Shown piece by piece: positions 4,513 through 48,108 of a stretch of DNA of 64,000 bases. Under the pieces are notes generated by a model. It saw only the letters and a program-made list of their open reading frames with translations. It ran no database searches and was not told the origin of the DNA. Within the stretch, counting starts at the first letter, position 1, and the number at the start of each line of letters is the position of its first letter. This DNA comes from Acidobacteriota bacterium (GTDB lineage Bacteria; Acidobacteriota; UBA6911; RPQK01; CBDBID01), in contig CBDBID010000040.1 in the NCBI GenBank assembly GCA_965205565.1, positions 111,451-175,450 on the forward strand, in the 5' to 3' direction. The translations under genes were made by a program, and so were the position numbers.

Positions 4513-5079
4513 ATGACCTGGATACGAACCGTTTCCTACGCTCAGGGGGGGGCTCGGCTCAAGAAGGCCATGGATCGGCTACGAGAACTCTACCCTCCAG
4601 AGTACGATCTGCCCGTTCAAGAGGCCGGGCAACGGCAGGAGAGCGTGGTGGCGGTACATAGCTTGATTCCTGATGCTCTCTATCATGCTCTGGCGACTCA
4701 CGGTGTCCTGCTGTCTCCCGAGCTGCCGCTGAGCCGGGCGCAACAGGAGATGATCTCCACGGTGGTCTCGGTTCAGAATCGGTGCTCCTTTTGAATCGAA
4801 TCTCACGCAGAGTTTCTGCGTCAAGTTAGCCTGGACGAACCACTGGTCAAAGCTCTGCAGGAAGATTACCGATCGGCGCCGATTTCCGATCGGGACCGGA
4901 TGATGCTGGATTACGTAGTCCAGCTGACCAAGGATGCCACCCGGATTTCGCGACAGGATCATCACAAATTGGGTCAGGCGGGCTTCGAGGAGCGAGCCAT
5001 CCTGCAGATGACCCTGATTGCCGCTTGGTTCAATTACATCAACCGAGTCGCCGATGCCCTGGGCGTCGGCCGGCCTTAG
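4513..5079 (+). CDS. AhpD/carboxymuconolactone-decarboxylase (CMD) family peroxidase-related protein; candidate selenoprotein with in-frame UGA at 4792-4794
   Basis: GGAGG RBS then ATG at 4513. The reading frame continues unbroken across TGA 4792-4794 to TAG 5077-5079. The motif NRCSF-[TGA]-IESHAEF puts the TGA at the second Cys of the family's CxxC...H redox motif. The C-terminal region ([18 protein letters not shown]) is typical CMD. Confidence 0.6.
4805..4821 (+). promoter_or_regulatory. SECIS-like hairpin (ACGCAGA-GUU-UCUGCGU) starting at the 11th nt after the UGA
   Basis: Perfect 7-bp stem with a 3-nt GUU loop, preceded by a 10-nt spacer after TGA 4792-4794; total 17 nt. Confidence 0.45.
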
Positions 5080-9254: not shown

Positions 9255-10186
9255 TAAATGCAGTGGCTTCCCCCAAAGTTCGGCGGCAGATCCGATTTTA
9301 CAGACTTGATGTTGAGCCGGACGAAACTGGCCATCCACAATCTGTAGATTTCCGAGAGGTTCTCAAGAAGATCGGTCGATTGCAGTTCCGACTCGGGGAG
9401 CGGTATTTGGATCTCAGTGGCGGTCAGATATTGTGCGTCTGGCCAGAGAAAGAGCAATTGAAGTCGAAACCACCACGATTGAGGTTAGGCACCGTCAGGC
9501 AGCAAGATTTACCTCAACTTGAGGACCACGGGAGGATATCTCCTCTTCGATTACAAAGCCAACAGGGCATCGTAGAACAGACGCATGTAGTCTTTTTTGA
9601 CGATGGCATTGTCGGAGTTGAGTTCAACTTTCATGGTCCACGGATTAATAGACTGGGGAGGTACTTATATGTTAGATTTCCTCATGATCTCCCCAAAATA
9701 AACTTCGACATAATTCTGAACTAGGATATCGATAAGAAGCTGGAGCATCTCCAGGATATTCATCTGGTACAATTCCGCTCAAGACGTGGTTATACAGACA
9801 GTGTGAGGCGTGCATCAGAGAGTCTTCCATCTGCTTTGCAGCAGATGGAAGATGCCGTGAGTCCTCCTGTAATAGACATTATTATGAGAAACGAACTCCG
9901 ATCCCGCAAGAGTTTAGGGAAGGCAGTCCTCGATTGGGTACGAGAGATAGCGGGAACTCCTAGCTCTCTTGAGGAGCTCGATGTTTTCAAGGTTAAAGGG
10001 ACCGATGATAGGACTGGAAGGGTTGAAAACTTTGATTTCTTAAGTGATCGATTTGTGGCTACGAAAACTGTCCATCTACAACTCGACACCCATAGAGGAA
10101 TAAAATCTGGTGAGATGTACGATGCCATCAGTGAATCTCACGCAGAGTTGAAAGATTCTCTAAATCAAGCGGCCAGTTTGTCATGA
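9255..10186 (+). pseudogene. AT-rich gene remnant: N-terminally truncated by the IS1380 insertion and carrying an internal TAG (9722-9724)
   Basis: A single frame is open from the IS end to 10186 except for one amber codon; ~45-50% GC against ~60% background; no recognisable domain. Confidence 0.4.
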
Positions 10187-10281: not shown

Positions 10282-11734
10282 CTAGCAGTCCGTGGTGGAA
10301 GTACGTTTTCTGAGCTCAGGTGGTACCCACCGGTGGAAGCAGCGAAGGGGTCGCTGAGGTGGGTTTTTCGGGCCAAGCAGCCGGAATCAGTCCGAACAGG
10401 CCCTTAAGACGCTTGAACAGCGACAAAATCAGTAGCATTAGGGCGCAAATCCGCCCCTGCAGACCCCGCGGCGTTCCCACACCCAGGCTCTGACGCATCA
10501 GCATCCCCAGATTGAAGGCGCTCACCTGGATCAGCAGTCGCTTCAACACATTCTCATGTCCCCGTACATGCAGCCGTCTCATCCCTCCGCTCCCGTACAG
10601 ATGCGCACAGGGTCGCTCCAGCTGCTCTCCTCGTTGCTGCAGCAGCCGCTGCCCTCGCTCTCCCCGGATGCGCCGCCGATTCGCATACACCGCTTCCTGC
10701 CCCTGCCGGTCTCCTCGCCAGCGTCGCTTCCCTCGCCTCGGTTCGCTCACATAGCTGCGCAGTCCCACCGCATCCAGGTCCACCATCCGCTGCGTGCTGT
10801 GATACCCCTTGTCGGCCACCACCTCTTCGATGCCTCGTCCCTCCGGCAGCGCTTGTTCCACCTTCTCGACCGCTTCCGTCAGGGTCTTCACCATGGTCTG
10901 CGTGTCCCCTTGATCGGCTCCCTGTACCGTCACCGAGACAATCGCTCCGGTCTCCAGATCCACTGCATGCTCCGCCTTGTGCGCCAGGTGCGTCCGCCCG
11001 TCCTTCATTCTGGTAATCCGCGCATCCGCATCATGCGGGTGCTTCCAAACCCGGTTCGATCCTTTGCCCGTGCGCTTGCGGTCCAGTTTGGCCAGATCTT
11101 CCCGTCGCGGCGTCTCAATCCCGGAGGCTTTCGCCAGCTCCATCAAAAACTCTTCATACCCCTGCTCGCTGTCCCGGCGCACGATGCTGCGCAGCGCTGC
11201 ATTCGCTTCCAGCGTAGTGGCATCGATGCCGATCGTCTTGCCCCGCAGCAGGCCGCTCGCCCCGATCCGCTTCAGTACCCAGTCAAAGACTGCTTCGTGG
11301 GTAGCCACATCGATCAGTCGCCGGGTTCGGGAGATCGTGGAGTGATCAGACGGCGACTCGCTCAGTTTCAATCCCAGAAACTCTCGCAGTGCCAGAGAAT
11401 CAGCTGCTCTCCAGGCTATTCCTCGTTCCGATCCGATCCCTTCGAAATACCCCACCAGCAGCAGCCGAAAGTACACTCCCGGAGCCAGGCTCGGTCGCCC
11501 CATCTTGTCTGCATAGAACTTCGCACACAGTCCCTCCACGAAGTCGTCAAAACCGTGTTCGTTGAAAAGGCCATTCAGTCTTTCGTAGAAGGGATGGCCG
11601 GCGGTGCGGGGCAGCTCACTGGTGGCGACCCACAGGTCTTCTTGCTGTCGACGTTTCTTTTTCCCCATTGCCATGGGGTCAGTCTAGTGTCGCTGTGTGA
11701 CCCCTTATCCTCGACTTTCACCACGGGCTGCTAG
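10282..11734 (-). mobile_element. IS5/IS1182-family insertion sequence, copy A (1453 bp)
   Basis: Imperfect 20-bp IRs CTAGCAGTCCGTGGTGGAAG / CTTTCACCACGGGCTGCTAG; second copy at 41235-42686 with >99% identity. Confidence 0.8.
10316..11674 (-). CDS. IS5/IS1182-family transposase (452 aa, DUF772 N-terminal domain + DDE)
   Basis: FYADKMGRPSLAPGVYFRLLLVGYFEGIGSERGIAWRAADSL is the InsH-N/DUF772 signature; ADKGYHS DDE region. Confidence 0.8.
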   Translation of the reverse strand: MAMGKKKRRQQEDLWVATSELPRTAGHPFYERLNGLFNEHGFDDFVEGLCAKFYADKMGRPSLAPGVYFRLLLVGYFEGIGSERGIAWRAADSLALREFLGLKLSESPSDHSTISRTRRLIDVATHEAVFDWVLKRIGASGLLRGKTIGIDATTLEANAALRSIVRRDSEQGYEEFLMELAKASGIETPRREDLAKLDRKRTGKGSNRVWKHPHDADARITRMKDGRTHLAHKAEHAVDLETGAIVSVTVQGADQGDTQTMVKTLTEAVEKVEQALPEGRGIEEVVADKGYHSTQRMVDLDAVGLRSYVSEPRRGKRRWRGDRQGQEAVYANRRRIRGERGQRLLQQRGEQLERPCAHLYGSGGMRRLHVRGHENVLKRLLIQVSAFNLGMLMRQSLGVGTPRGLQGRICALMLLILSLFKRLKGLFGLIPAAWPEKPTSATPSLLPPVGTT

Positions 11735-11853
11735 GACTCATACCCCTCGTTACATCCTTCTCTGATAATCACCAGACTCTCTATGGCACTCTGGCTTCTG
11801 TATGTGGGTCTCTTCTGGGCTTTGTTATCACTTCTGTATCGATAATATTTTCG

Positions 11854-14928: not shown

Positions 14929-15333
14929 ATGGCAACCATACGTGTGATGGAAGAGAGGGAGGCCGAGGGGCGGGTTCGGGAGATCTTCGAAGAGATCAAG
15001 AAAACCAAAGAGATTGATTTAGTGCCAGCCATCTGGCGGGCGCTGGCGAATCATCCCGGCCATCTGGAAGTGACCTGGAAGAAACTGAAGGGAATCATGC
15101 ACGAGTCCAGTCGACTGGACCTGAAGACCAAGGAGATGCTGGCCCTGGCGGTATCCATTACCAACGGTTGCACCTACTGAATCCATTCCCATACAGTCGC
15201 CGTGAAGCGGCTTGGATTGGATAATAAAGGGTTGGGCGAGCTGATCGCGGTGATCGACCTATTTAATGGTTTGAACCGAGTGGCCGATGGCTACCAGCTG
15301 GAGCCGGACGTGGTACCTGCTCTGGAAGATTGA
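14929..15333 (+). CDS. AhpD/CMD-family protein, paralogue 2; candidate selenoprotein with in-frame UGA at 15178-15180
   Basis: Frame continuous across the TGA to the TGA at 15331-15333; motif ITNGCTY-[TGA]-IHSH parallels NRCSF-[TGA]-IESH of the 4513 gene; C-terminus LGELIAVIDLFNGLNRVADGY is CMD-like. Confidence 0.5.
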
Positions 15334-16521: not shown

Positions 16522-18909
16522 ATGATTCTTGTGCGTCGCTTCCTGCTTTTCCATCCCAGTCTCGTTTTGGCCGTGATCCTGGTGGCAATCCGGGTCGGAT
16601 GCGGCCAGTCAGAGCCCCCGAAAATGGTGTTGGATCTGGATCGACCGGCAGAAGTGATCGGATGGGTGTGCAGTGGCATCGAGAAGCTGCCGGGACGAAT
16701 CGATCTCGACTTGAAACCAATTTCGGTGTCTCAAGCGGCGGTGAGTGTCCAGTATCCCTACCGAGTGCGACTCTCCATCTACTCCTCAGGGACGCCAGGT
16801 CGGGAATTTTTCGACCCGCCCTTGGAGTATGGAGAGGTGGTGCGTCTTCACACGTTCCTGCGGGAGCCGCCCTGTACGCCCTTCCCGGAACGCTCAACCA
16901 ACGTCAGCTCTGATTTCAAGAGGGAATCCTTCATACCATCCGCTTGAAGTCGCCTCTTCAGATCGAGCGCCTGGGACGCCATCAGGGAACCCCCCTCCTG
17001 AGGCCCATCTTTCAGCACACAGGACAGTCCGAAGAGTTTTGTGAGAAGGCAGTTAGTCCGGATAGATTGAAGTTAATTCTAAGTGTCTTTCTGGGTCGCA
17101 AGAAGGTACTGGAAGAGTCGGACCGGCCGTTGATTAAGCGTCTGGGCATCTTTCACCTTTTTGTGGTATTGGGCTTTCACGTTACCGTCCTGCGTTCTCT
17201 TTTTCATCTGATGTTTCGTCCTCTGGGCCCATGGCGATTGTGGTTGTCCTTGGCAGGAATGTGGATGTACGTGTGCGTGACCGGTGCCGGGGTCTCAACG
17301 GTTCGGGCCGGAATCATGGTCACGGTGTGTACTATCTGCTGGGCCTGGGTGGCTTACGCTATCGGTTCCTGAACATCGTGGGGCTTTCGGCCTGCGTTGT
17401 TCTCCTCTTGTGGCCGAACAGCGTCTTCCATCCTGGTTTCCAGTTCTCTTATCTATCGGTCGGCGCCCTGGGCACCATCGCTTTTCCGAGGCTGCGGTCG
17501 TTCCGAGCGATGATCCACGGATTCACCGCGGCCTTTGCAGACCGGATCTTGGTAGGCCGAACTGGGGAAAATAAAAAACGGCGCAAGGCTCGATAATGGT
17601 TGGAGGAGGTGGCGGAGTTCTGGCCTGTGTCTTTTCGGCGAGGGTTTCCCGTTGTCGCTGCAGTGTTCTACCGGGTCTGGAGCCTGGTGATTTGTACCCT
17701 TTCGATTCAATTCATGACACTCCCTTTGAGTCTCTATTACTCCAACGCGTGGGGCTTTTCTCTGATTGTTTCGAACCTGTTCCTGATTCCCTTTTTTCTG
17801 CTTTTTGTCTTCAGCTGTGCGCTGCTTTTTGGGGTGTTCTGGTTGCCGGGAGGACAGTGGCTGGCGGCCCTGATCGATGCCTTCGGGTTGGGGCTGTCAG
17901 CTGCTAGTCGGCTGCTGGACAGCTGGGGAGGCCCGTCATATTTTCCACAGCCCGAGGCGTGGCAGCTGATCCTGTTCTATTTCCTGCTGGTGGCAATCTA
18001 TTTTCTGCAAAGACGGTGGTTGCGCTGGCTGGCTGTTGCTGCCCCCGCCCTTCTTCTGATGTCCGTCCCGGTCAAGATCCACCCAGCGGGCCGGCTCACG
18101 ATCACCATGTTGGATGTGGGGCAAGGCGAATCTATTCACGTGCGCTATCCGGATGGAAGCGATGCTCTGGTCGATATTGGTGGCCGGCCGCCCCTAGGCG
18201 ACCATTCGAGAGACTTCGTGGGAGAGCGGGTACGAAGGCTGCGCTACGTCCTTTTGACCCATCCGCACGCCGACCACGTGCAGGGTTACGAATTCGTACG
18301 AGGGCGTTTCCGATCGGCCAGCTGTTCTTCCATGAGTACTCTGCTCAGTACGAACCGTCTGCCAGCATGGATTGTTTGCGAGCGGGTGATGGCTTCGTGA
18401 TTGCCGGCGTGGAGCATTCCGTGCTGCATCCGGCGATGACATGTACAGTCCAACCCAGGTCCGATACCAATAATGCCGCGCTGGTGTTCTTGCTGCGGTA
18501 TGGGGGATTCTCGATGCTCTTCACGGGTGACTTGGAGGTCGAGGGCGAGAGAGCACTACTCTCGCGGCTGAAACCGGTTACGGTGTTGAAGTCGCCTCAT
18601 CATGGAAGCAAGTCCAGCAATACAGGAGATCTTCTACGTCGCAGCCACCCGGAAGCGATTCTGATATCGGCGGGCCGGGACAATGTTTTCGATCACCCCT
18701 CTCGTGCCACTCGCTTGCGGTTTCGCCAGCTCCGCATTCCCTTTTTCGTCACCTCGGCATGGGGATCGCTTCGGGTGGAAACCGATGGCGAGCGCTGGCG
18801 GCTTCTTCGCTACAGCCGCGCGGCGGACCGTTTTCTGGAGATTCCGTTGAAAGACGGAGTTTTATGTCAAACGCTTAGCTCCAGCAGGCTAAAGTCGGGC
18901 AGATCATAG
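16522..18909 (+). pseudogene. comEC: ComEC/Rec2 competence channel protein, split over >=4 frames
   Basis: Membrane competence domain (LGIFHLFVVLGFHV...) and metallo-beta-lactamase domain (ITMLDVGQGESIHV...LLTHPHADHVQG ... SPHHGSKSS) are found in the consecutive overlapping ORFs 16522-16947, 16944-17372, 17231-17596, 17600-18400 and 17959-18909; the frameshifts could be sequencing errors. Confidence 0.55.
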
Positions 18910-21954: not shown

Positions 21955-22141
21955 GAGATCTCTCCGCCGAGCAGCAAGAGCTCATACTAGTGTTGACCCC
22001 TGTCAAAGTCCAGGTGACACGTGGCATGTGGTCCGGGGGGAGCAAAGACCGGAAAAAGGGGAAGAAAAAAGTCCGGGCAGTGTCTCAGTTTGATTAATCG
22101 GCCTATTGTGTCTGCCCGGCAGTAAGTGGTAGGCTCTGTCC

Positions 22142-22369
22142 ATGGCAAGAGGACCGAAAGGCGAATGGAGGCCCACAGACCCGTTAGCATGCGCTGTGCA
22201 TTGCGCGAAGTTGGCTACAGGTGAGATTCAAGAGACCCACTCAGATCCCAACCAGGTGGCCACCCGCAACCGCGCCAGCAAGAGCGGCAAGGCCCGCGCC
22301 GCCTCTCTCTCACCGAAGAGGCGTAGCGAAATTGCTAAGGCTGGTGCGAGTGCTCGGTGGGACCGATAG
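22142..22369 (+). CDS. hypothetical small basic protein (75 aa)
   Basis: Lies at the edge of a lower-GC insert and converges on the PIN gene; no motif. Confidence 0.25.
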   Translation: MARGPKGEWRPTDPLACAVHCAKLATGEIQETHSDPNQVATRNRASKSGKARAASLSPKRRSEIAKAGASARWDR

Positions 22370-22370
22370 A

Positions 22371-22889
22371 TCATTTATCGTGCTGCCCCTTGAGAACCAC
22401 ACCGAACAAGGGACCATAAATAGACTCGTCCGGGACAATAATCTCCAGCGTCCTACCGTCACGACACTTAACCTTGCCGTTTAACCCTAACAAATCATTC
22501 CCGTCGTAGGTGTGCATTGCGTCAGAGTTCCAATATAAAGCCGTAGCTAGGTGTATGGCGTCCGGAGCTTTCTTGAGTTCTTCATGTTCTCTAAGAAGCT
22601 TCCGTGCGTTATCGGCTACTATGTGATCTAGGTCCGCCAAGATCACATGCTGCTGCCGAAACATTTCAGATATTTCGGTTTCTTTCGTGTCGGACAGTGG
22701 CTTTGCGTCATTTTGCTCGCACTTCTTCTTGAACACTTCTACTTGACTAAGCACAGACGTAAGTATCTCGCATGATCCATTCTCCGCCCTGGACCATACC
22801 TCACGCAAAGCTATGTACTTCTCTGTCTCCCGATTCAACAGTCCAAGCCATGCACAAGCATCCCAATAATATCTTTTTGTTTCTGGCAA
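22371..22889 (-). CDS. PIN-domain protein (VapC-like nuclease fold)
   Basis: Four acidic residues spaced as in PIN domains (YYWDACAWL..., ...QVEVF..., PDAIHLATALY, TYDGNDLL); start overlaps the stop of the upstream 276-aa gene; ~50% GC. Confidence 0.5.
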   Translation of the reverse strand: MPETKRYYWDACAWLGLLNRETEKYIALREVWSRAENGSCEILTSVLSQVEVFKKKCEQNDAKPLSDTKETEISEMFRQQHVILADLDHIVADNARKLLREHEELKKAPDAIHLATALYWNSDAMHTYDGNDLLGLNGKVKCRDGRTLEIIVPDESIYGPLFGVVLKGQHDK

Positions 22890-22890
22890 T

Positions 22891-23721
22891 CTATTCGCCC
22901 CACAGGTCGGCTAGATGTCGTTGCGGCGATTGGCCCCCAGTGGGGTCAGCTATGTTATCAATATCAACTTCACCAACTGTCACAGGGTGAATCTCGTCCA
23001 CTGTTAGTTGTGCAATCTTTCCGGTGCCTTTTCTCTCGATCGTTCCTGATACGATGCAACGCTGGCCTGTCCAAACTTCTCCCCAGTTGTGTTCCGTGCC
23101 GATCTGTTCTACACGATCATTGGGGATCACACATAAAATCTTCTCTCCCGATATGCGATGCAATAGCTTGAAGGCTGGCTTGCCATAGTGTTTGATCGCT
23201 TCGATTACCTTACCCTCAATAGTGCCTAGATTTTTGATGGGCAAATATTCAGCCGAAAACTCGCTGTGGCTGATAACATCTAAAGCAGCTTCAGCACGAT
23301 CAGTAACGAGTTCCAGCGGAGCTTTGTTATCTAATAAAACCACATCGGTTTGGGAGACTCCATTAACATTTCTCTCAAGCCAGCCTTTAAGCCTATTCCT
23401 AGTGCTTGAAGTAGTCCAATCTGGCAATGCGCGGTCTTCCAATACAGCACTAAGAAGTTCGTAGCATCGTTCCCTTGCTTGACGAGCATCTGACTCGATA
23501 TCCGGCCACTCCTGCGGATTGGCGCTGGCAGCTTCTGCAACCGTTCTAAATGGGCTACTCATGGTTGCACTTACAAGACACCACTTTAATTTCGAGCGCG
23601 CATCGTCAATAGAAGAAGCAACGACTAACTCAATAGAATCGAGAACCTGCTGCATGGCGTCTTGAACAGTCATGACCCCGCCTTCGCGAGCATGGACGAT
23701 AATTGTAATTCTCTCAGCCAT
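22891..23721 (-). CDS. hypothetical protein (276 aa), co-operonic partner of the PIN-domain gene
   Basis: Ends 1 nt before the PIN gene start; low GC; no recognisable domain. Confidence 0.45.
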   Translation of the reverse strand: MAERITIIVHAREGGVMTVQDAMQQVLDSIELVVASSIDDARSKLKWCLVSATMSSPFRTVAEAASANPQEWPDIESDARQARERCYELLSAVLEDRALPDWTTSSTRNRLKGWLERNVNGVSQTDVVLLDNKAPLELVTDRAEAALDVISHSEFSAEYLPIKNLGTIEGKVIEAIKHYGKPAFKLLHRISGEKILCVIPNDRVEQIGTEHNWGEVWTGQRCIVSGTIERKGTGKIAQLTVDEIHPVTVGEVDIDNIADPTGGQSPQRHLADLWGE

Positions 23722-23941
23722 TTTGCCTCATACTTTTACAAACACCTTGCAATTCACCGTCGATTCCGTAACTCTCCTGTCCGGCCCGAGCCGACTCAGG
23801 ATCACTTGCGAATTGCTCTCAACGTCGGACAACCTGGACGTGGTTTTCGTTCTCAACAAAGTTTAGGAAGCCGCGGGAAAATAATAGCACAGAGCTCACC
23901 GACAGGTTGACGGCTATGCTTGCAGATGTTATACTTTAATT

Positions 23942-24814
23942 ATGAACAAGCTCCCGGCAAAGAGGCGGGCCAAGATCATTCGGTTGCTGGTCGAGGGTGC
24001 TTCGCTCCGCTCTATAAGCCGGATCGAGGATGTCTCAATCAACACCGTCTCCAAGCTGTTGGTCGATGCGGGTGAGGCGTGCGTGAACTTCCACAACAAC
24101 CATGTGCAGGGCGTGAAGGCCAAGCGCATCCAAGTAGACGAGATTTGGCAGTTCTGCTACGCGAAGGAGAAGAACGTGGATAAGGCCAAGGCCGCGCCGG
24201 AGGGATCGGGCGACACATGGACCTGGACAGCGATTGACGCCGATTCCAAGCTGATCGTTTCATGGTTGCTGGGAGAGCGCGACAGCCGCTCCGCCTATCA
24301 CTTCATTGCGGACCTGGCCGAGCGGCTCACCGATCGCGTGCAACTCACCTCAGACGGCCTCGGCCTCTACAGGTGGGCCGTGGAGTGGGTGTTCGGATCG
24401 GACGTCGACTACGCCCAGCTGGTGAAGATTTTCGGTGCGCCCGTCGAGGGAGAGAAACGCTACAGCCCCGCCACCTGCAAGGGCACCAAGCGATCCGCCG
24501 TGATGGGCAACCCCCACCCCGACCACGTCTCCACTTCCTATGTCGAGCGGCACAATCTGACCATGCGGATGTCGATGCGCCGGTTCACACGCCTGACAAA
24601 TGCGTTTTCTAAGAAACTGCGGAACCATGCTCTCGCGCTCGCGCTATACTTCGTCTACTACAATTTCTGCCGGATTCACAAGACGCTTCGCATGACACCG
24701 GCTATGGCCGCTGGCCTCACGACCCAACTGCACGATGCAGAATGGATCGTTGGATTGGTAGACGCACGAGCACCTAAGCCAGCGAAGCCCGGACCGAAGG
24801 GGCCTAGAAAATAA
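23942..24814 (+). CDS. IS1-family (single-ORF type) transposase
   Basis: N-terminal HTH (RRAKIIRLLVEGASLRSISRIEDVSINTVSKLL), DDE region DEIWQFC...WTWTAIDADSKLIVSW, C-terminal YNFCRIHKTLRMTPAMAAGL typical of IS1 InsB. Confidence 0.6.
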   Translation: MNKLPAKRRAKIIRLLVEGASLRSISRIEDVSINTVSKLLVDAGEACVNFHNNHVQGVKAKRIQVDEIWQFCYAKEKNVDKAKAAPEGSGDTWTWTAIDADSKLIVSWLLGERDSRSAYHFIADLAERLTDRVQLTSDGLGLYRWAVEWVFGSDVDYAQLVKIFGAPVEGEKRYSPATCKGTKRSAVMGNPHPDHVSTSYVERHNLTMRMSMRRFTRLTNAFSKKLRNHALALALYFVYYNFCRIHKTLRMTPAMAAGLTTQLHDAEWIVGLVDARAPKPAKPGPKGPRK

Positions 24815-25069
24815 TCAAACTGAGACACTACCAAAGTCCGAGCAACCTTGACTTCTCGGGAGTGCGTGTCTATAGTTTAGCGCGCTCGGGGATTCTGGGG
24901 GTGTCGGGGAGGAGTATCCTACCGTTGGAAGCAGAGCAGCGAGGCTCGAACTTCCTTCAATAATATCATAGGTGGTTTTGTTGCCGCTATCCGGCAGCCT
25001 GCGCGGAGGGTCGCCCATAAGGGCGGTGCAGCTTGGGGCAGGAGGGGCAGACCTGCAAGGGGATGTGTG

Positions 25070-25303
25070 ATGAAGAAATCGGGTAAGGTCAAGTGGTTCA
25101 ACAACGCCAAAGGCTATGGATTCATCGAGCATGAAGAAGTGGAGGCCGACATCTTCGTCCACTACTCCGCGATCCAGGGAGAAGGGTATCGCACGCTCAA
25201 GGAAGGCGAGGAAGTCGAGTTTGCATTGAAAAAGGGTCCCAAGGGACCCCAGGCAGAGAATGTAGTACGGCTTTTCTTGGGCGAAGTGGAAGTAGCCGGC
25301 TAG
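25070..25303 (+). CDS. cspA: cold-shock protein (CspA family)
   Basis: [23 protein letters not shown]...[10 protein letters not shown]: RNP1/RNP2 cold-shock domain. Confidence 0.85.
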
Positions 25304-25451: not shown

Positions 25452-26885
25452 ATGGCCCCTGTGGCGAACCCCACCCAGGCGTTACGCTCTCTCCCCTCCG
25501 TAGACGAGGTCCTGCGGCGCAGTGCCGTCAAGAAACTGCTGCAATCCCACGCCCGAGATCTGGTGGTTCGCATCGTCCAGGAGCGCCTGGAAGAGCTGCG
25601 CACGCTGGTTTTGAGCCAGCATCTGGACGAGGCCGCGCTGGAGTCGCGTCTGGCGAATCTGGACGGGTGCATCAGTGCTTGCTTGAGAAAATATCTTATC
25701 CCGTCGTTGCACAAGGTGGTCAATGCCACAGGTGTGATCGTTCATACCAACTTGGGCCGGGCCCCCATGGCGGCTCCCGCGGCGGCCAGGTTGGAGGAGA
25801 TCGCCAGATCCTACTCGACGCTGGAGTACGATCTGGAGAAGGGTGATCGAGGGCATCGGGACCGTTATTTCGAGCAGCGAATGATGCAAGTTCTGGGATG
25901 TGAGGCCGCCACCGTCTGCAACAACAATGCCGCCGCGGTTTTCCTGCTCGTCAACACCCTGGCCGCCGGCAAAAAGGTGCTGGTGAGTCGAGGTGAGCTG
26001 ATCGAAATCGGAGGGTCTTTCCGCATTCCCGACATCCTTCGAAGTAGTGGTGCTGTCCTGAAAGAAGTGGGGACCACCAACAAGACCAGGACCTCGGATT
26101 ACCGGAACGCCATCGACGAGGACACGGCTCTCATCTTACGGGTTCATCCGAGCAATTACCGAGTCGTAGGATTTACGGCGAGGCCCCGTTTGAAGGAATT
26201 GAGCGAGCTGGCGCGGGAACGGAACCTGTATCTCATCAAGGATGCGGGAAGTGGTTACCTTTTCCCGATTTCCCACTCAGTCTTGGGTCGCGAACCAACC
26301 ATCCAGTCGGTCCTGCAAACGGGGGTTGATGCCGTGTGTTTCAGCGGCGACAAATTACTGGGGGGGCCACAGTCCGGCGTGGTGGTAGGAAAAAGGGATT
26401 TGATTGATCGCCTCCGCGACAACCCTCTGATGAGAGTTTTCCGTGTGGACAAGATGACTTACGCTGCGCTGGACTCGACGCTGCTGGAATATCTCAAGGG
26501 AACGGCGGCGCAAACAATCCCCGTCCTGCGCATGCTATCGCTTTCGGTCGAAGAGCTGGAGCATCGAGCCAGGGGGATACAAGAACAGCTCGATTCGCGC
26601 GTTTTTGAAACTTGTCTGCGAGCGGGGGCCTCGGTAGTGGGCGGTGGAGCCGCCCCGGAAGAATCGATCGACACCAGGCTACTGGCTATCCGCTGGCCAG
26701 CCCATTCAGCCCACGACTTGGAGCAAGCGCTGCGCCACCAGGATCCTCCGATCCTGGCACGTATCGGAAAAGATCAATTGCTGCTGGACTTGCGAACCGT
26801 CTTGCCGGAAGAAGACCCAATCGTGGTAAAGGCCTTCTCGAGACTGGCCAATAGGCGTGAGGATCCCGTTCACACAAGCGGTTGA
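25452..26885 (+). CDS. selA: L-seryl-tRNA(Sec) selenium transferase (selenocysteine synthase) SelA
   Basis: LPSVDEVL N-terminus, VVNATGVIVHTNLGRA, CNNNAAAVFL...SRGELIEIGGSFRIP, PLP-lysine region FSGDKLLGGPQSG; 477 aa. Confidence 0.85.
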   Translation: MAPVANPTQALRSLPSVDEVLRRSAVKKLLQSHARDLVVRIVQERLEELRTLVLSQHLDEAALESRLANLDGCISACLRKYLIPSLHKVVNATGVIVHTNLGRAPMAAPAAARLEEIARSYSTLEYDLEKGDRGHRDRYFEQRMMQVLGCEAATVCNNNAAAVFLLVNTLAAGKKVLVSRGELIEIGGSFRIPDILRSSGAVLKEVGTTNKTRTSDYRNAIDEDTALILRVHPSNYRVVGFTARPRLKELSELARERNLYLIKDAGSGYLFPISHSVLGREPTIQSVLQTGVDAVCFSGDKLLGGPQSGVVVGKRDLIDRLRDNPLMRVFRVDKMTYAALDSTLLEYLKGTAAQTIPVLRMLSLSVEELEHRARGIQEQLDSRVFETCLRAGASVVGGGAAPEESIDTRLLAIRWPAHSAHDLEQALRHQDPPILARIGKDQLLLDLRTVLPEEDPIVVKAFSRLANRREDPVHTSG

Positions 26886-26944: not shown

Positions 26945-28298
26945 TCAGAGTTGGCGAAGGGCCAGGTTGGCGGCGATCTGCAGGGGATCCCACAGTGTGC
27001 CGTAGGGTGGTGCGTAGGCAAGGTCCAGCTGAGAAAGCTCCCAAACCGTCATTCTGGCCGTCAGGGCGGCAACCAGGGTGTCGATCCGCTTGGCTACGGA
27101 ATCGTTTCCGGCGATCTGACCGCCCAGAATACGCCCGTCTCCTCGATCGAAGATCAATTTGACGTGCATGGGACCGGCGTCCGGATAATAGCGGGCCCGG
27201 TTGCGATCGGTCACGTAAACAGAGCTGGCTGCGAAACCGGCTTTGTAGGCCTGACGCAGGGTCAGACCGGTGCGGGCGACAGCGAGTTGGAAAACCTTTT
27301 CCAAGGAGGTCTCCAGGCTCCCCGCGAAAGATGCTGGTTTGACCGGCCAGATTTTCCCCCACGACGCGCCCCTGCTTGGCGGCTGTGGTACCCAGAGATG
27401 AGAAGATCGGCTGTCCGGACACCTGGGAGACGGTCTGTGCGCAATTGCCGGCCGCATACACACCTCCGGTTCGAGTTTGCCCGCGTTCGTCAACCCAGAT
27501 AGCTCCGCTCATCCCGCAAGGGATTCCAGACCGCTCCGCCAGTGCGGTGTTGGGATCTATCCCGACGTCGATCACCGCGAGGCCCACGGGGCGGACTTCG
27601 GGGCCCACCTCTACAGCCTGGACCGCTCCGTTCAGACCAGCCAGTTTCCTGACTCGTGTTTCCAGGACTAGGTCGATCTGGTTTCGTCTCAGCTCCTCCT
27701 GGATAAGCTCGGCGATCTCCTCGTCCACCTGGTTAAAGACGTGCGGATTGCGCTCGACCAGGAGCACCTCCAAGCCCAGAGTGCGCAGGGCGTGGGCCAT
27801 CATGAGGCCAATGTAGCCCCCACCCACGATCACCGCGCGACGCAGCTTGTTTCGCTTGATGGCATTCCGGATGCGGATACCGTCTTCCAAACGGCTGACG
27901 GTAAACACGTTCTGCAAGCGGAGACCGTCGATGTCGGGTACTCTGGGGACGTAACCGGTGGCGATGACGATTTTCCGGTAAGGGATCTCGAATGACTTTT
28001 CCGAGCGCAGGTCGGTGCAGGCAACCAGGCTGCGGCCCGTGTAAATCTCATCCACGCGGACGTTGGTGCGGGATAGGATGCCGCGCTCGGTCCGGAGACG
28101 CTCCGGTGAAAAGGAGATGAGTCGTTCGTGTTCCCCGACCATCCCGGAAACGTAGTAGGGCAGACCACAGATGCTGTAGGAGATAAAGGGGCTGGCTTCC
28201 AGGAGGGTTATCTCCAGATTGGGATCAAGGCGCTTGGCACGGCTGGCCGCGGTCATCCCGGCTGCATTTCCGCCGATCACCACGATACTTTCGCCCAT
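26945..28298 (-). CDS. FAD-dependent pyridine nucleotide-disulfide oxidoreductase (NADH oxidase / CoA-disulfide reductase family) with an apparent 1-nt frameshift near 27342
   Basis: N-terminus MGESIVVIGGNAAGMTAA...SICGLPYY (redox Cys); the C-terminal dimerisation domain (YYPDAGPMHVKL...GRILGGQIAG) is in the +1 frame (ORF 26945-27493); the switch lies between ENLAG and KPASFAGSL. Confidence 0.6.
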
Positions 28299-36855: not shown

Positions 36856-37309
36856 ATGGCCAGAAGCCTGATGCTCATTGCAGCTGCGACCTTTATCATC
36901 GCTCCGCCGTCCCCGACACCCAAGGCCGGGGAGGAAACTTTGGCTGAGAGCAAGAAGGTGGAACGAATTGCAATTACGGAACTCAAGAAGAAGCTTGACG
37001 GTGGCGTAAAAATTCCTCTTGATTGATGTCCGAGAGGATTGGGAATTGGAAGAACATGGGGCGATCCCGGGTGCCCTTCACATCCCCGTGGGCGAGCTCG
37101 ACGACCGGATGAAGGATATTCCCAAGGGTGTCGGCATCGTCTTCTACTGAATGGGTGGAGGGCGCGCGTCGCGCGCCGCCGAGAAGTTCATCAAGGCCGG
37201 CTACAATACTGGTCAGTTTTGTGGCCTTCGCGACTGGAAGAAAGACGGTCAGGAAGTCGTCGAGAAAGTGGATCGGCCGCCAGCAGGACCGATCCAGCCA
37301 GAAAGATAG
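36856..37309 (+). CDS. single-domain rhodanese (sulfurtransferase) with TGA at the active-site Cys position (candidate selenoprotein) and a +1 frameshift in an A5 run
   Basis: ATG 36856 with signal-like N-terminus. The frame switches at AAAAA 37008-37012 (A5 -> A4 restores DGGVKFLLIDVREDWELEEHGAIPGALHIPVGEL). IVFY-[TGA 37148-37150]-MGGGRASRAAEKFIKAGY places the TGA exactly where the rhodanese catalytic Cys (CRSGxR loop) sits. Stop is TAG 37307-37309. Confidence 0.55.
37161..37177 (+). promoter_or_regulatory. SECIS-like hairpin (GGCGCGC-GUC-GCGCGCC) starting at the 11th nt after the UGA
   Basis: 7-bp stem, 3-nt GUC loop, 10-nt spacer after TGA 37148-37150; identical architecture to the hairpin at 4805-4821. 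Confidence 0.45.
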
Positions 37310-41059: not shown

Positions 41060-41234
41060 TGATATATCGCCGCATTTATAAGCCTAACCATTTCTTGATT
41101 GCCATATCTTCCAGAAAGTTGCTCGCCTTCATCGATAAGAAAAGTCGGATGGCTTTGTTCATTGAGCCTAAATAAGACAGCAGTTGTAATTCCTGCGCTC
41201 ATCTATTCAAATCAGGTCTTGTACAAACTAGCTC

Positions 41235-42686
41235 TAGCAGTCCGTGGTGGAAGTACGTTTTCTGAGCTCAGGTGGTACCCACCGGTGGAAGCAGCGAAGG
41301 GGTCGCTGAGGTGGGTTTTTCGGGCCAAGCAGCCGGAATCAGTCCGAACAGGACCTTAAGACGCTTGAACAGCGACAAAATCAGTAGCATTAGGGCGCAA
41401 ATCCGCCCCTGCAGACCCCGCGGCGTTCCCACACCCAGGCTCTGACGCATCAGCATCCCCAGATTGAAGGCGCTCACCTGGATCAGCAGTCGCTTCAACA
41501 CATTCTCATGTCCCCGTACATGCAGCCGTCTCATCCCTCCGCTCCCGTACAGATGCGCACAGGGTCGCTCCAGCTGCTCTCCTCGTTGCTGCAGCAGCCG
41601 CTGCCCTCGCTCTCCCCGGATGCGCCGCCGATTCGCATACACCGCTTCCTGCCCCTGCCGGTCTCCTCGCCAGCGTCGCTTCCCTCGCCTCGGTTCGCTC
41701 ACATAGCTGCGCAGTCCCACCGCATCCAGGTCCACCATCCGCTGCGTGCTGTGATACCCCTTGTCGGCCACCACCTCTTCGATGCCTCGTCCCTCCGGCA
41801 GCGCTTGTTCCACCTTCTCGACCGCTTCCGTCAGGGTCTTCACCATGGTCTGCGTGTCCCCTTGATCGGCTCCCTGTACCGTCACCGAGACAATCGCTCC
41901 GGTCTCCAGATCCACTGCATGCTCCGCCTTGTGCGCCAGGTGCGTCCGCCCGTCCTTCATTCTGGTAATCCGCGCATCCGCATCATGCGGGTGCTTCCAA
42001 ACCCGGTTCGATCCTTTGCCCGTGCGCTTGCGGTCCAGTTTGGCCAGATCTTCCCGTCGCGGCGTCTCAATCCCGGAGGCTTTCGCCAGCTCCATCAAAA
42101 ACTCTTCATACCCCTGCTCGCTGTCCCCGCGCACGATGCTGCGCAGCGCTGCATTCGCTTCCAGCGTAGTGGCATCGATGCCGATCGTCTTGCCCCGCAG
42201 CAGGCCGCTCGCCCCGATCCGCTTCAGTACCCAGTCAAAGACTGCTTCGTGGGTAGCCACATCGATCAGTCGTCGGGTTCGGGAGATCGTGGAGTGATCA
42301 GACGGCGACTCGCTCACTTTCAATCCCAGAAACTCTCGCAGTCCCAGAGAATCAGCTGCTCTCCAGGCAATTCCTCGTTCCGATCCGATCCCTTCGAAAT
42401 ACCCCACCAGCAGCAGCCGAAAGTACACTCCCGGAGCCAGGCTCGGTCGCCCCATCTTGTCTGCATAGAACTTCGCACACAGTCCCTCCACGAAGTCGTC
42501 AAAGCCGTGTTCGTTGAAAAGGCCATTCAGTCTTTCGTAGAAGGGATGGCCGGCGGTGTGGGGCAGCTCACTGGTGGCGACCCACAGGTCTTCTTGCTGT
42601 CGACGTTTCTTTTTCCCCATTGCCATGGGGTCAGTCTAGTGTCGCTGTGTGACCCCTTATCCTCGACTTTCACCACGGGCTGCTAG
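41235..42686 (-). mobile_element. IS5/IS1182-family insertion sequence, copy B (1452 bp)
   Basis: Same IRs as copy A; 4 aa differences in the transposase; same orientation as copy A (direct repeats ~29.5 kb apart). Confidence 0.8.
41268..42626 (-). CDS. IS5/IS1182-family transposase (452 aa)
   Basis: Near-identical to 10316-11674. Confidence 0.8.
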   Translation of the reverse strand: MAMGKKKRRQQEDLWVATSELPHTAGHPFYERLNGLFNEHGFDDFVEGLCAKFYADKMGRPSLAPGVYFRLLLVGYFEGIGSERGIAWRAADSLGLREFLGLKVSESPSDHSTISRTRRLIDVATHEAVFDWVLKRIGASGLLRGKTIGIDATTLEANAALRSIVRGDSEQGYEEFLMELAKASGIETPRREDLAKLDRKRTGKGSNRVWKHPHDADARITRMKDGRTHLAHKAEHAVDLETGAIVSVTVQGADQGDTQTMVKTLTEAVEKVEQALPEGRGIEEVVADKGYHSTQRMVDLDAVGLRSYVSEPRRGKRRWRGDRQGQEAVYANRRRIRGERGQRLLQQRGEQLERPCAHLYGSGGMRRLHVRGHENVLKRLLIQVSAFNLGMLMRQSLGVGTPRGLQGRICALMLLILSLFKRLKVLFGLIPAAWPEKPTSATPSLLPPVGTT

Positions 42687-43073
42687 GAGAGTAAGAAGGT
42701 TTGACTTTCCACACCCCGAGGTAGGACTAATAACGGTATCTCTGTCGTCGTCAGCCTTCTTGATTGGGGACAAATCTATCAATTTCTTCCCGGAACCAAG
42801 TAACCACTACCCAAAGAGCCACCAGTGTCGAGCCGGTAACTGTTCCATATACATATACGAGCCAAACCATTCACTGATGTTCTTTCAAAACGAGAGGAGC
42901 CTTCGACAGGATTCGGATAGGGGGTAACAGGGGGGACTGCGTCATCGTGCTTAAGGGCTTTGCGCTTCAGGCATGCTTAATAGCTGGCGTCCACCAGTCG
43001 AGCAGGCGCATCCACGCCACCCTCTTTTAGAGCGTCTATTGCTCCGAGAACGCAGTATCTCGCGACCTAAATT

Positions 43074-44338: not shown

Positions 44339-45154
44339 TCAATCATGGGTACCGCTTTCGCAACCAAAGACCTTGGAATCAAACTCGCCAATGATCTCGG
44401 AGACACGTGTCCAGGTTTTCCAGAGAAGTTGTACAAGGTTCCATCTAACCCCGGAGACAAGGTGGAACTTCTCAAACCCTACCGAGAAGCAAGGATATGC
44501 CTTTATCTCCTCGTCCGCTCGGCCAACGGGGAACGTTCCAAAAATCACCTCATCTTCTTTCAGCAACGCGTTCCCGTCCACGTGGAACAGCGGTGTGCTC
44601 TTGTTCCCTGTGTGTGCGGCCAATGTGCCGAACACAATAAGCGTTGTGGGGATGATTCTATGCTTGTCGGTGTTGTGGAGTTCTCTGAGAACCCAGAGCA
44701 TATCATCGTGCGGGGCACGGGGGATTCGTTCGTAAGGCTGTTCCCTCTCTATGAGAGATGCTTGGAGCGGGGATACACCTTCTATCATTCCGCCCGATCT
44801 GGATCTATACCCGCTCCTGGTTTTGAAGATGGGAAACTGGAGTCTTCCCTCTTTCTGGAGATCAAGACTGGGTTCGTTCAAAAGCACGATCTGATGAACG
44901 AGATGGTCAAGACTAGATCGCAAGTGGTACAGGGCCTCCCCGGCCAACAAGACGATATTGATATCGAGCTTGAAGCTGGGGTTTCTGACTGCGGTAAGCG
45001 TTACGGCGGGACTCCCTTTCTCCGATTTTTCATCGACTCGGATGGTGTATGGTTCACGCTTTGTAAGCTGGTCAAGGTGCCCATTCAGGTCGTTGATTAT
45101 GGTTTTGGCCCGTTCAATTTTGAGGCGGATTCCTTCTAGCGGATCAATCATCAC
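44339..45154 (-). CDS. hypothetical passenger protein (271 aa), co-operonic with the methyltransferase-HNH gene
   Basis: Its start overlaps the MTase stop (ATGA, 45151-45154); contains RELHNTDKHR (possible HEPN-like Rx4-6H); is fully overlapped by an antisense 293-aa ORF. Confidence 0.4.
   Translation of the reverse strand: MMIDPLEGIRLKIERAKTIINDLNGHLDQLTKREPYTIRVDEKSEKGSPAVTLTAVRNPSFKLDINIVLLAGEALYHLRSSLDHLVHQIVLLNEPSLDLQKEGRLQFPIFKTRSGYRSRSGGMIEGVSPLQASLIEREQPYERIPRAPHDDMLWVLRELHNTDKHRIIPTTLIVFGTLAAHTGNKSTPLFHVDGNALLKEDEVIFGTFPVGRADEEIKAYPCFSVGFEKFHLVSGVRWNLVQLLWKTWTRVSEIIGEFDSKVFGCESGTHD
44345..45139 (+). CDS. alternative antisense ORF (264 aa from the ATG at 44345) overlapping the 271-aa gene
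   Basis: GGGAGG RBS 8 nt upstream of the ATG; a stop-free stretch of ~290 codons in ~50% GC DNA is unexpected by chance. Confidence 0.25.
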   Translation: MGTAFATKDLGIKLANDLGDTCPGFPEKLYKVPSNPGDKVELLKPYREARICLYLLVRSANGERSKNHLIFFQQRVPVHVEQRCALVPCVCGQCAEHNKRCGDDSMLVGVVEFSENPEHIIVRGTGDSFVRLFPLYERCLERGYTFYHSARSGSIPAPGFEDGKLESSLFLEIKTGFVQKHDLMNEMVKTRSQVVQGLPGQQDDIDIELEAGVSDCGKRYGGTPFLRFFIDSDGVWFTLCKLVKVPIQVVDYGFGPFNFEADSF

Positions 45155-46801: not shown

Positions 46802-46828
46802 CCCAGAAGGGATGCTAGACTAGGTATG

Positions 46829-46854
46829 TTGGTATGTCAAGTAAGTAGTTACCC
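46829..46854. repeat. right terminal inverted repeat of the IS1595-family unit
   Basis: TTGGTATGTCAAGTAAGTAGTTACCC is the reverse complement of 43074-43099. Confidence 0.7.
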
Positions 46855-46930
46855 TAAATTGTCTAGACTTTCTGCTTCCTTTTTCACATCAAGCAAATAG
46901 GCTTCTACTTTATCGATGTCCAAGGTTTTC

Positions 46931-47764: not shown

Positions 47765-48108
47765 TTCTTCGCTAGAGGCTTTAATAGAGATCCTGGGTTG
47801 AGCGACTTTAGCTTTGCTGGTGTTGTTTCCAGCGCTGTAGAGAACTTCTCTATTTCTTTGTTTTCGGCTTTGATATGTCCGTTTTCAATCAATGAATTTT
47901 TTAAGAGGGGATGCCAGTCTTTTCAGCCAAGTCCCACTGCGTCAGGCCAGCCCAGTGTCGAGCGACTTTTAATGATTTCATGCCTCCCATTACATCCAAT
48001 ATAGGGGTTAACAGCAAACTAATTTGTTAGTAATTATAAGAAAATAACGGATATCCGGAACTATCCGGCCCTAAGTCCGGCCCTGCTGGTTAAAATCGAT
48101 GGGAAGGG

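Follow-up and report, generated by a model that had tools for sequence, protein, structure and literature searches.

The bacterial machinery for selenocysteine (Sec) comprises selA, selB, selC and selD in E. coli, where selA and selB form an operon. True SelA is discriminated from the SelA-like DgaE enzymes by its N-terminal tRNA(Sec)-binding domain. A bulged U17 and a loop of the sequence GGUC characterize the SECIS element of E. coli, and the minimal element of E. coli fdhF is reportedly 17 nt long and located 11 nt after the UGA. For SelA, a structure of the Aquifex aeolicus enzyme is available (PDB 3W1H). A general bacterial SECIS model describes a loop of 3-9 nt in which one of the first two nucleotides is a G, mostly with G or U as its 3' neighbour, a stem of 4-16 bp, a UGA-to-loop distance of 16-37 nt and a minimum free energy (MFE) of -7.5 kcal/mol or lower (PMC13188914). 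Among the families decoded in this way, AhpD-like (TIGR01926) and CMD-domain (PF02627) selenoproteins with a CxxU motif first became known through the Sargasso Sea metagenome (PMC1088965) and are among those listed in PMC13188914, and rhodanese-related sulfurtransferase selenoproteins of the UxxG form are known as well (PMC1088965; table in PMC13188914).

Here, a stretch of 64,000 nucleotides from an uncultured Acidobacteriota-like bacterium (hereafter the window) was analyzed, which carries a selA gene and three genes with an in-frame UGA. We are confident that this organism uses the standard bacterial Sec pathway and that the three genes are recoded. All three are new members of known selenoprotein families, so that the finding is real and ordinary: it extends the Sec users by an acidobacterial lineage that has been poorly sampled and leaves the current understanding of Sec decoding unchanged.

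SelA and its genomic neighbourhood

The selA gene (25452..26885, + strand) encodes an L-seryl-tRNA(Sec) selenium transferase of 477 aa, which had initially been recognized from its motifs. All of these could be located (HTNLGRA at 25743-25763, CNNNAAA at 25917-25937 and SGDKLLGGPQ, which contains the PLP lysine, at 26343-26372), and the profile searches agreed with the assignment. The protein scored 549.9 bits against NCBIfam TIGR00474 (cutoff 267.9), with profile positions 1-453 of 455 covered, and matched Pfam PF12390 (Se-cys_synth_N) and PF03841. It was aligned to A. aeolicus SelA (PDB 3W1H) with E=2e-104, and the residues of SGDKLLGGPQ, TNLGRAP and NNNA are identical in this alignment. The N-terminal tRNA(Sec)-binding domain (PF12390) is present, while the DgaE models gave just 49-58 bits, well under their cutoffs. 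SelA is therefore genuine and full-length. Like the E. coli and A. aeolicus enzymes, it belongs to the equivalog family and has the tRNA domain, the motif with the PLP lysine, and a core and a C-terminal domain. Comparison with an orthologue of 79% identity yielded a dN/dS of 0.18, indicating purifying selection; the best match obtained by a pattern-based scan of GTDB species-representative genomes was 47% identical.

In contrast to the selAB operon of E. coli, selA is unlinked to selB here and lies in a ComEC-CoaX-PurH-Csp-SelA neighbourhood. The initial annotation was right that the linkage is absent, but the absence is unremarkable: selB was found close to selA in just 16 of the 43 selA loci with 5 kb or more of flanking sequence to either side and was absent nearby in the other 27, and the clade itself keeps selA unlinked. 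All close relatives (SelA identity 79, 74, 60 and 58%) show the same unlinked synteny, with the purH-selA neighbourhood without selB kept down to 58% SelA identity and ComEC and CoaX also present where the contig extends far enough. Where selB does accompany selA in a GTDB locus, the SelA protein is at most 46% identical. A stable separation of selA from selB is thus possible, as shown here. Just upstream of selA, a gene for a cold-shock-domain protein (25067..25303, + strand) was detected that matches the CspE and CspD models, both under their cutoff. A csp gene also precedes selA in L088-L090 and L173, as well as in six loci from GTDB, of which four are titled Acidobacteriota or its classes; csp is part of the conserved selA neighbourhood.

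On the other side, selA is followed on the opposite strand by a flavoprotein disulfide oxidoreductase, as initially described. This convergent gene (26945..28298, - strand) encodes a CoA-disulfide-reductase-like protein, which aligned over its full length with TIGR03385 at 399 bits, under the cutoff of 578.8, and has the Cys form of the active site (SICGLPY). An extra C at 27323, found in the window only and presumably an assembly error, splits the gene; the latter is intact (450 aa) in L001, L085, L089 and L090. A functional link between selA and the flavoprotein was rejected, since the pairing is confined to close relatives and thus reflects shared synteny rather than a general association. 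IS elements are abundant in the region, and ComEC is, like the flavoprotein gene, split.

The statement that the window contains no selB, selC or selD was confirmed. ARAGORN and Rfam, applied to the whole window, gave a tRNA-Ala (54072-54147) as the only tRNA gene and no tRNA-Sec, and no match to the Rfam SECIS or tRNA-Sec families was obtained in the window at E-values up to 5; as a control, ARAGORN found tRNA-SeC in 13 of 40 selA loci. With tblastn, nothing resembling SelB or SelD was detected in the window or in the further loci of the organism that were analyzed, which include approximately 10 kb beyond each window end, taken from sister-strain contigs, whereas the SelB probes matched 34 control loci and the SelD probes 19. 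ARAGORN and Rfam likewise gave no tRNA-Sec in these flanks. Use of the IS5 transposase as a look-up for other sites of the genome returned no record.

In-frame UGA codons and the genes that carry them

A codon-usage scan of the window revealed exactly three credible in-frame UGA sites, which span 32.4 kb and lie in the contexts NRCSF-U-IESH (TGA 4792), NGCTY-U-IHSH (TGA 15178) and IVFY-U-MGGGRAS (TGA 37148). In all three proteins, two AhpD/CMD-like and one rhodanese, the UGA occupies the position of a catalytic Cys. The initial proposal of three UGA-recoded genes within 33 kb holds for number and distance, but one of the three, the rhodanese gene, has a frameshift in this strain. Further TGA candidates at 146 (- strand), 15678 (-), 19592 (-), 20629 (+), 53513 (+) and 55214 (+) from the same scan were rejected, variously because two neighbouring genes (CoaX and the one after it) share a frame, because a confident gene occupies the opposite strand, or because the catalytic-Cys context and a motif hairpin are missing.

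Some database translations of close homologues (P0125, P0249, P0251, P0253) have W at the site, as might be expected if UGA encoded a standard amino acid, through a code reassigned to Trp or Gly or through general read-through. However, the DNA has TGA at this position and its translation does not reproduce the stored protein, so that W fits gene calling under another code. TGA furthermore serves as the stop codon of 14 of the 30 confident window genes, selA included, which argues against a genome-wide reassignment, and the in-frame TGAs are confined to the sites of catalytic Cys residues and followed in each case by a positioned hairpin, in an organism that has a genuine SelA. The probability of a standard amino acid at these codons is consequently regarded as negligible.

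The first AhpD-like gene (4513..5079, + strand, 188 codons, UGA at 4792-4794) encodes the motif E-x11-C-S-F-U-I-E-S-H, with the predicted Sec at the site of the second Cys in CxxC. The protein matches PF02627 and TIGR01926 (111.3 bits, cutoff 81.8), and the coding score carries on in frame past the UGA. Its homologues are either Cys forms with CxYC at the site or, in the closest ones, have TGA. The second gene (14929..15333, + strand, 134 codons, UGA at 15178-15180) encodes E-x11-C-T-Y-U-I-H-S-H (E-MLALAVSITNG-CTYU-IHS-H), again with CxYC in homologues, and matches PF02627 (55.7 bits, cutoff 23) and TIGR00778 (47.7 bits, cutoff 27.8); with TIGR01926 it reached 60.6 bits, under the cutoff. Its orthologue in L088/L089, the relative with 79% SelA identity, retains the in-frame TGA. 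A circular contig of 4.57 Mb (ERZ25766727:ctg362381_16x_c) has exact copies of the fragments of both AhpD-like genes and encodes a SelA that falls into the same cluster at 90% identity. Both proteins thus resemble the known AhpD/CMD selenoproteins in the CxxU motif with Sec at the second Cys, in the family models matched and in the coexistence of Sec and Cys homologues. They differ in that gene 2 is short (134 aa), its matches being limited to the models of the AhpD core domain and of CMD, and in that neither protein reaches the cutoff of the named NCBIfam selenoprotein models NF041238 and NF041047.

The third gene (36856..37309, + strand, UGA at 37148-37150) encodes a rhodanese-type protein and is interrupted. 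When repaired, the sequence scored 50 bits against PF00581 and consists of a single rhodanese domain with the active-site loop U-M-G-G-G-R-A, the UGA being located at the catalytic Cys, and with an N-terminal hydrophobic segment that by eye resembles a signal peptide. Single domain and Sec for the catalytic Cys in U-x-x-G-x-R are as in the known UxxG rhodanese selenoproteins, from which the protein differs by the signal-peptide-like N-terminus (as judged by eye) and by the frameshift of the window copy. It reached just 36 bits against NF041203 (cutoff 115), which assigns it to another subfamily. In homologues, the UGA site is occupied by Cys (VFYC) or the protein ends exactly at ..VFY; at the DNA level, the codon is TGA in 25 metagenome loci and TGC or TGT in 55. 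Among the Sec-form homologues with a named organism, nearly all are labelled Acidobacteria or Acidobacteriota.

The interruption is caused by a single inserted T at 37007, upstream of the UGA, by which the first 56 codons (36856-37026) are separated from the remainder (37010-37309) in the +1 frame, so that the gene has no continuous open frame. The insertion is common to the window, L085, L086 and L087, which are four independent assemblies, and is presumably real, while the copy in the sister strain L091 is intact. The rhodanese copy of this strain is probably inactive and the insertion recent. Alternatively, the gene might be kept alive if ribosomes slipped by +1 at the sequence A-AAA-A (37008-37012), a run that arose beside the inserted T; the slip would restore ...GGVK-FLLIDVRE... 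approximately 45 codons before the Sec-UGA. Fixation of the insertion in the four assemblies and the intact downstream frame, UGA and SECIS would agree with such a slip, and two recoding events would then be needed in one short gene. We regard this reading as highly improbable.

SECIS hairpins downstream of the UGA codons

Each UGA is followed by a hairpin, the stability of which was computed as the MFE over 40 nt from the UGA. A spacer of 10 nt separates the UGA of the first AhpD-like gene from its hairpin (4805..4821, + strand; ACGCAGA GUU UCUGCGU), in which a 7-bp stem carries a GUU loop (-8.8 kcal/mol). That of the rhodanese gene (37161..37177, + strand; GGCGCGC GUC GCGCGCC) likewise begins after 10 nt and has a 7-bp stem with a GUC loop (-17.1 kcal/mol). 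In the second AhpD-like gene, the hairpin (15195..15212, + strand; AGUCGC CGUGAA GCGGCU; -10.4 kcal/mol) starts 14 nt after the UGA; one of the 6 bp of its stem is a G.U pair, and GU occupies positions 2-3 of its 6-nt loop. In the order of their positions (4792, 15178, 37148), the three hairpins thus have stems of 7, 6 and 7 bp, loops GUU, CGUGAA and GUC, and UGA-to-loop distances of 17, 20 and 17 nt, and all of them fit the general bacterial model (PMC13188914). Their stability is not exceptional by itself, with fold z-scores of -1.2 to -1.45 relative to shuffled sequences.

The coordinates bear out the initial observation that two of the three elements share one 17-nt design, TGA-N10 followed by a 7-bp stem and a GUN loop. 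On both strands of the window, this strict motif occurred at those two sites only and in 0 of 200 shuffled windows. The relaxed version with a G[GU]N loop gave no false positives in approximately 280 kb, both strands included. It had further been suggested to enumerate the selenoproteome by scanning for the motif. A scan of the window and of 217 kb of additional sequence from the organism and its relatives yielded no further sites; for enumeration the motif alone is unsuitable, since it misses other SECIS shapes. Three in-frame matches to the same design at other selA loci were all apparently non-coding and were rejected.

Conservation of the hairpins was analyzed in homologues. All 17 nt of the AhpD-1 element are identical in L174, L175 and L176 (two distinct sequences, proteins 65-67% identical), which derive from unrelated metagenomes. 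In the AhpD-2 element, the stem in L089 has two changes (A to G and U to C), and pairing is kept by both. For the rhodanese, 25 Sec-form sequences were aligned (23 public metagenome loci, the window and L091), 21 of which have the same hairpin with a GUC, GGA or GGC loop. In this alignment 91.4% of the cells are paired and two sequences have a compensatory G-C to A-U exchange, although the covariation is thin, as the stem positions are mostly invariant and only this one type of compensatory pair, in two sequences, was found. In the Cys form L115, the peptide encoded is the same and the hairpin is absent.

The initial annotation had interpreted the 7-bp, GUN-loop design starting at +11 as a lineage-specific SECIS consensus, which would be imposed by the organism's own SelB. 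Two unrelated genes of one genome do share the geometry, and the named Sec-form homologues of the rhodanese are, as described above, almost entirely acidobacterial. Against this, the third SECIS of the same genome differs (14-nt spacer, 6-bp stem, 6-nt loop), inheritance of each hairpin follows its gene family through many metagenomes, the loops vary (GUC, GGA, GGC), and the design lies within the general bacterial model (PMC13188914) and resembles the minimal E. coli fdhF element. A lineage-specific consensus is thus unlikely. Because homologues from unrelated metagenomes have these hairpins as well and the general model accommodates all three, the structures predicted at the three UGAs are standard bacterial SECIS elements and not lineage-specific; such hairpins travel across lineages with their gene families. 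Like the consensus model and the minimal fdhF element, they have a stem of 6-7 bp and a small apical loop that opens with GU or GG. Two of them also agree with fdhF in their length of 17 nt and in starting about 11 nt after the UGA, and the loop lies 17-20 nt past the UGA. In contrast to the E. coli fdhF SECIS, these two elements have a 3-nt loop, a perfect stem without the bulged U and a spacer of 10 instead of 11 nt.

Selenocysteine decoding or a relic selA

According to the established pathway, SelA would convert Ser-tRNA(Sec) to Sec-tRNA(Sec) with selenium donated by selenophosphate. The genes for SelB, tRNA(Sec) and SelD would lie elsewhere in the genome of roughly 4.6 Mb, and SelB may bind the hairpin that starts 10-14 nt past certain in-frame UGAs and deliver Sec-tRNA(Sec). 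In the thiol peroxidase-related AhpD/CMD pair, Sec would thereby take the place of the second Cys of E-x11-CxxC-x3-H, and in the rhodanese-type sulfurtransferase with its signal-peptide-like N-terminus that of the catalytic Cys.

Alternatively, selA might be a relic, the UGAs true stops and the three genes truncated or decaying. The absence of selB, selC and selD from the window and the fetched flanks, the frameshift of the rhodanese in this strain and the split ComEC and flavoprotein genes in an IS-rich region would be compatible with such a decay. It is contradicted by the strong purifying selection that acts in frame on the codons after the UGA. Compared with the orthologue of the relative with 79% SelA identity, the 49 codons past the UGA of the second AhpD-like gene show 21.5 synonymous and 8.5 non-synonymous differences (dN/dS 0.083, with 0.22 upstream of the UGA), and the rhodanese copies of two strains gave a dN/dS of 0.135 after the UGA. 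SelA itself is under selection as stated above, UGA and hairpin are retained across lineages 30-45% apart in protein sequence, and the UGAs are placed precisely on the catalytic Cys codon in three of three genes. A relic selA is hence very unlikely. Selection beyond the UGA and conservation of the hairpins across lineages lend good, though indirect, support to the initial view that UGA is decoded as Sec, and the organism very probably does so. In public gene calls, the selenoprotein genes are cut off at the UGA or the UGA is rendered as Trp.

SelA and the search for further selenocysteine genes

The open reading frame at 25452..26885 (plus strand, 477 aa) was securely identified as SelA. It scored 549.9 bits against the NCBIfam equivalog model TIGR00474 (selA, cutoff 267.9) and covered nearly the whole profile, and models of the SelA-like DgaE gave just 49-58 bits. 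PF12390 (N-terminal SelA domain) and PF03841 are listed in the public gene call of an identical protein. In an alignment with Aquifex aeolicus SelA (PDB 3W1H; E=2e-104) the segments TNLGRAP, NNNA and SGDKLLGGPQ were kept, the last of which holds the PLP lysine. The three motifs from which the initial annotation had called selA unambiguous were located at 25743-25763, 25917-25937 and 26343-26372, and the call stands. The next relatives in a large protein collection were 79, 74 and 60% identical, followed by many at 51-59%, of which every organism-named one is labelled Acidobacteria/Acidobacteriota. Among GTDB species representatives, a pattern-based scan found as closest a SelA of 47% identity in a Blastocatellia genome.

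As previously stated, selB, selC and selD were not found in the window. The only tRNA detected there, by ARAGORN and by Rfam (gathering threshold, and E up to 5), was tRNA-Ala at 54072-54147; in a positive control on 40 loci with selA in other genomes, ARAGORN recovered tRNA-SeC in 13. SelB and SelD sequences, serving as tblastn probes only, matched 34 (SelB) and 19 (SelD) of 80 control loci, and gave no match in the window or in those loci of the organism that were compared, ~10 kb past each window end included. Likewise, no EF-Tu-type GTPase (PF00009 GTP_EFTU), SelB-wing or AIRS domain occurs in the Pfam lists of the organism's fetched loci. The absence of the usual selA-selB linkage is ordinary: among 43 selA loci whose flanks extend 5 kb or more in both directions, selB was found within the flank in 16 and was lacking in 27. 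The order ComEC, unknown gene, CoaX, PurH, (Csp), SelA was kept in the 79, 60 and 58% relatives and, on the short contig of the 74% relative, from the gene beside CoaX onward; selB was found in none of the fetched flanks of these four relatives. Having selA unlinked is thus a lasting trait of this clade and does not point to decay.

In-frame UGA codons and their decoding

In-frame TGA codons were searched with a codon-usage score trained on the long ORFs of the window; a hit needed 25 or more open codons, and a score above zero in frame, on either side of the TGA. Three credible sites were obtained, all on the plus strand: in an AhpD-like gene (AhpD-1, 4513-5079; TGA 4792, ...NRCSF-U-IESH...), in an AhpD/CMD-like gene (AhpD-2, 14929-15333; TGA 15178, ...NGCTY-U-IHSH...) and in a rhodanese gene (36856-37309; TGA 37148, ...GIVFY-U-MGGGRAS...). 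They cover 32.4 kb, in agreement with the three recoded candidates within 33 kb noted before. Six further hits were dropped, being same-frame neighbour genes, antisense to confident genes, or without catalytic-Cys context and matching hairpin. When family searches were run with Cys in place of UGA, AhpD-1 matched TIGR01926 ("peroxidase-related enzyme", 111.3 bits, cutoff 81.8) and also PF02627, AhpD-2 matched PF02627 (CMD, 55.7 bits) and TIGR00778 (AhpD core-domain model, 47.7 bits), and the rhodanese matched PF00581 (Rhodanese, 50 bits). The UGA corresponds to the second Cys of the E-x11-CxxC-x3-H signature in both AhpD-like proteins and to the catalytic Cys position of the active-site loop in the rhodanese. 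The same motifs, AhpD-like CxxU, CMD CxxU and rhodanese UxxG, are already listed among prokaryotic selenoprotein families (PMC1088965; PMC13188914), and the three genes are additional members of these known families from a poorly sampled lineage. A DUF3500 gene (3448-4443) on the same strand ends 70 nt upstream of AhpD-1, with which it may form one operon.

The proposal that the organism decodes UGA as Sec is very likely correct. The AhpD-2 orthologue of the relative at 79% SelA identity (loci L088/L089) lies in the same neighbourhood and carries an in-frame TGA at the identical codon. Over the 49 codons past the UGA the two copies differ by 21.5 synonymous and 8.5 non-synonymous changes, corresponding to a dN/dS of 0.083 (0.22 upstream of the UGA), and SelA of the same relative gave 0.18; the post-UGA sequence is therefore translated in frame and selA is under selection. 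Past the rhodanese UGA, a dN/dS of 0.135 was obtained between the window copy and the intact copy of a sister strain (L091). Purifying selection at all of these places argues strongly against selA being a relic and the UGAs real stops. A code in which UGA is reassigned throughout is opposed just as strongly by the 14 of 30 confident window genes, selA included, that terminate in TGA, so that UGA is a normal stop outside the recoded sites.

In the closest database homologues of AhpD-1 (65-67% identity) a W occupies the Sec position, where the DNA (loci L174, L175, L176) reads TGA; more distant homologues have CxYC at this site. Most full-length rhodanese homologues in the protein collection have Cys at the UGA position, and the same collection holds dozens of 93-104-aa products ending exactly at ...VFY, nearly all of those with an organism name being labelled Acidobacteria/Acidobacteriota. 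At 80 loci of a public metagenome-contig collection the rhodanese codon was TGA in 25 and TGC or TGT in 55. Public gene calls thus read the Sec-UGA of close homologues as W (proteins P0125, P0249, P0251, P0253; loci L174-L176) or end the product there, as in the rhodanese fragments, so that annotations of these selenoproteins are wrong on a large scale.

Hairpins downstream of the UGA codons

Each UGA is followed by a hairpin on the plus strand: ACGCAGA-GUU-UCUGCGU at 4805-4821 (AhpD-1) and GGCGCGC-GUC-GCGCGCC at 37161-37177 (rhodanese), both 10 nt past the TGA, and AGUCGC-CGUGAA-GCGGCU at 15195-15212 (AhpD-2), 14 nt past it. The minimal E. coli fdhF SECIS described by Liu et al. in 1998 is reportedly a 17-nt element ~11 nt past the UGA. 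That two of the three sites share one exact design was confirmed: when both strands of the 64-kb window were scanned for TGA-N10 followed by a 7-bp Watson-Crick stem with a GTN loop, this strict pattern occurred at the AhpD-1 and rhodanese sites only, and it occurred in 0 of 200 shuffled windows. A relaxed pattern, in which the stem may contain G.U pairs and the loop may be G[GU]N, was run on another 217 kb of this organism and its relatives, where matches were confined to the same two gene families. The minus strand at 37190 also reads TGA-N10, 7-bp stem and GAC loop, because the rhodanese hairpin is almost palindromic; this is a mirror effect and no second site. Fold z-scores of -1.2 to -1.45 indicate that stability by itself is not unusual, and the signal lies in position and conservation, not energy.

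In an alignment of 25 Sec-form rhodanese sequences, the window and L091 among them, the 7-bp, 3-nt hairpin was present at constant offset in 21, with GUC, GGA or GGC loops and with a compensatory change from G-C to A-U in two sequences; the other four form a distinct FF-U-NGG subgroup with a different hairpin. A Cys-form locus (L115) encodes the identical peptide GGGGRASRAA without the hairpin. In the alignment 91.4% of cells were paired, a value reached by 3 of 500 shuffles (slid registers, 14-69%), and its covariation score was equalled by none of 500. The 17-nt AhpD-1 hairpin was base-for-base the same in L174, L175 and L176, whose proteins are 65-67% identical to that of the window, and the AhpD-2 stem of the 79% relative has two substitutions (A to G, U to C) that both keep pairing. 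Judged from these alignments, each hairpin is a predicted SECIS that travels with its own gene family. The suggestion of a lineage-specific SECIS consensus did not hold, since the hairpins are kept within gene families, the geometry at AhpD-2 differs from that of the other two in the same genome, and all three satisfy the general bacterial model (PMC13188914). That model asks for a 3-9 nt loop on a 4-16 bp stem, with the loop 16-37 nt past the UGA, a G within its first two positions (the next base mostly being G or U) and MFE <= -7.5 kcal/mol.

Gene defects, strain differences and mobile elements

On the opposite strand, convergent with selA, lies the flavoprotein gene reported earlier (26945-28298, minus strand), whose product is CoA-disulfide-reductase-like (TIGR03385, 399 bits, below cutoff). 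Its active site, SICGLPY, has Cys where Sec-containing members of the family carry the motif UGxP (PMC13188914), and its pairing with selA was seen in close relatives only. In the window alone, an extra C at 27323, within a C-run, divides it into two ORFs. A contig 99.99% identical to the window (L001/L085) has the undivided 450-aa gene, as do relatives; in a 5x assembly of a relative it is split too. The extra C is probably a long-read assembly error. The rhodanese gene is broken 47 codons before its UGA, where a T has been inserted at 37007 (GGCG[T]AAAAATTCC), at a point spanned in all homologues by G-x-K-F-L-L-I-D-V-R-E. This T recurs in four assemblies made from different samples, and two of these have other differences from the window within the gene; it is missing from the sister-strain copy (L091:10001-10460). 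As it does not change a homopolymer length, the insertion is probably genuine and reflects a recent mutation that inactivates the gene. The frame would be restored by a +1 slip on A-AAA-A, but there is no other sign of programmed frameshifting. IS elements lie beside the rhodanese gene in all versions. ComEC (DUF4131, Competence and Lactamase_B domains; 16522-18400, plus strand) is a single 804-aa gene in the relatives L088/L089; the window and L001 have it in three separate ORFs.

Several long-read metagenome assemblies in ENA contain contigs that match the window at 99.99-100% identity. The sister strain, 99.6% identical in the end segments of the window, is represented by a 4.57-Mb circular contig (ERZ25766727:ctg362381_16x_c), on which both AhpD fragments occur as exact copies and the SelA belongs to the same 90%-identity cluster. 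Collinearity with sister-strain contigs ends at 7530 and is back at 52403; the strains therefore differ in how the 45 kb around selA is arranged, apparently through IS-mediated rearrangement. Two IS pairs were observed, an inverted DDE_Tnp_1_4 pair (8042-9261 / 50937-52156, 99.6% identical) and a direct IS5-like pair (10282-11736 / 41234-42688, 99.45% identical). An insertion between purH and csp/selA (~22000-24900), missing in the relatives L088-L090, L172 and L173, contains two unannotatable genes (22371-22889, 22891-23721; GC ~0.50) and an IS1-like transposase gene (23942-24814). A low-GC segment (0.48-0.50) at ~45100-52200 with N6/N4 methyltransferase-HNH, Prim-Pol and transposase genes may be a mobile element that integrated next to the tRNA-Ala gene.
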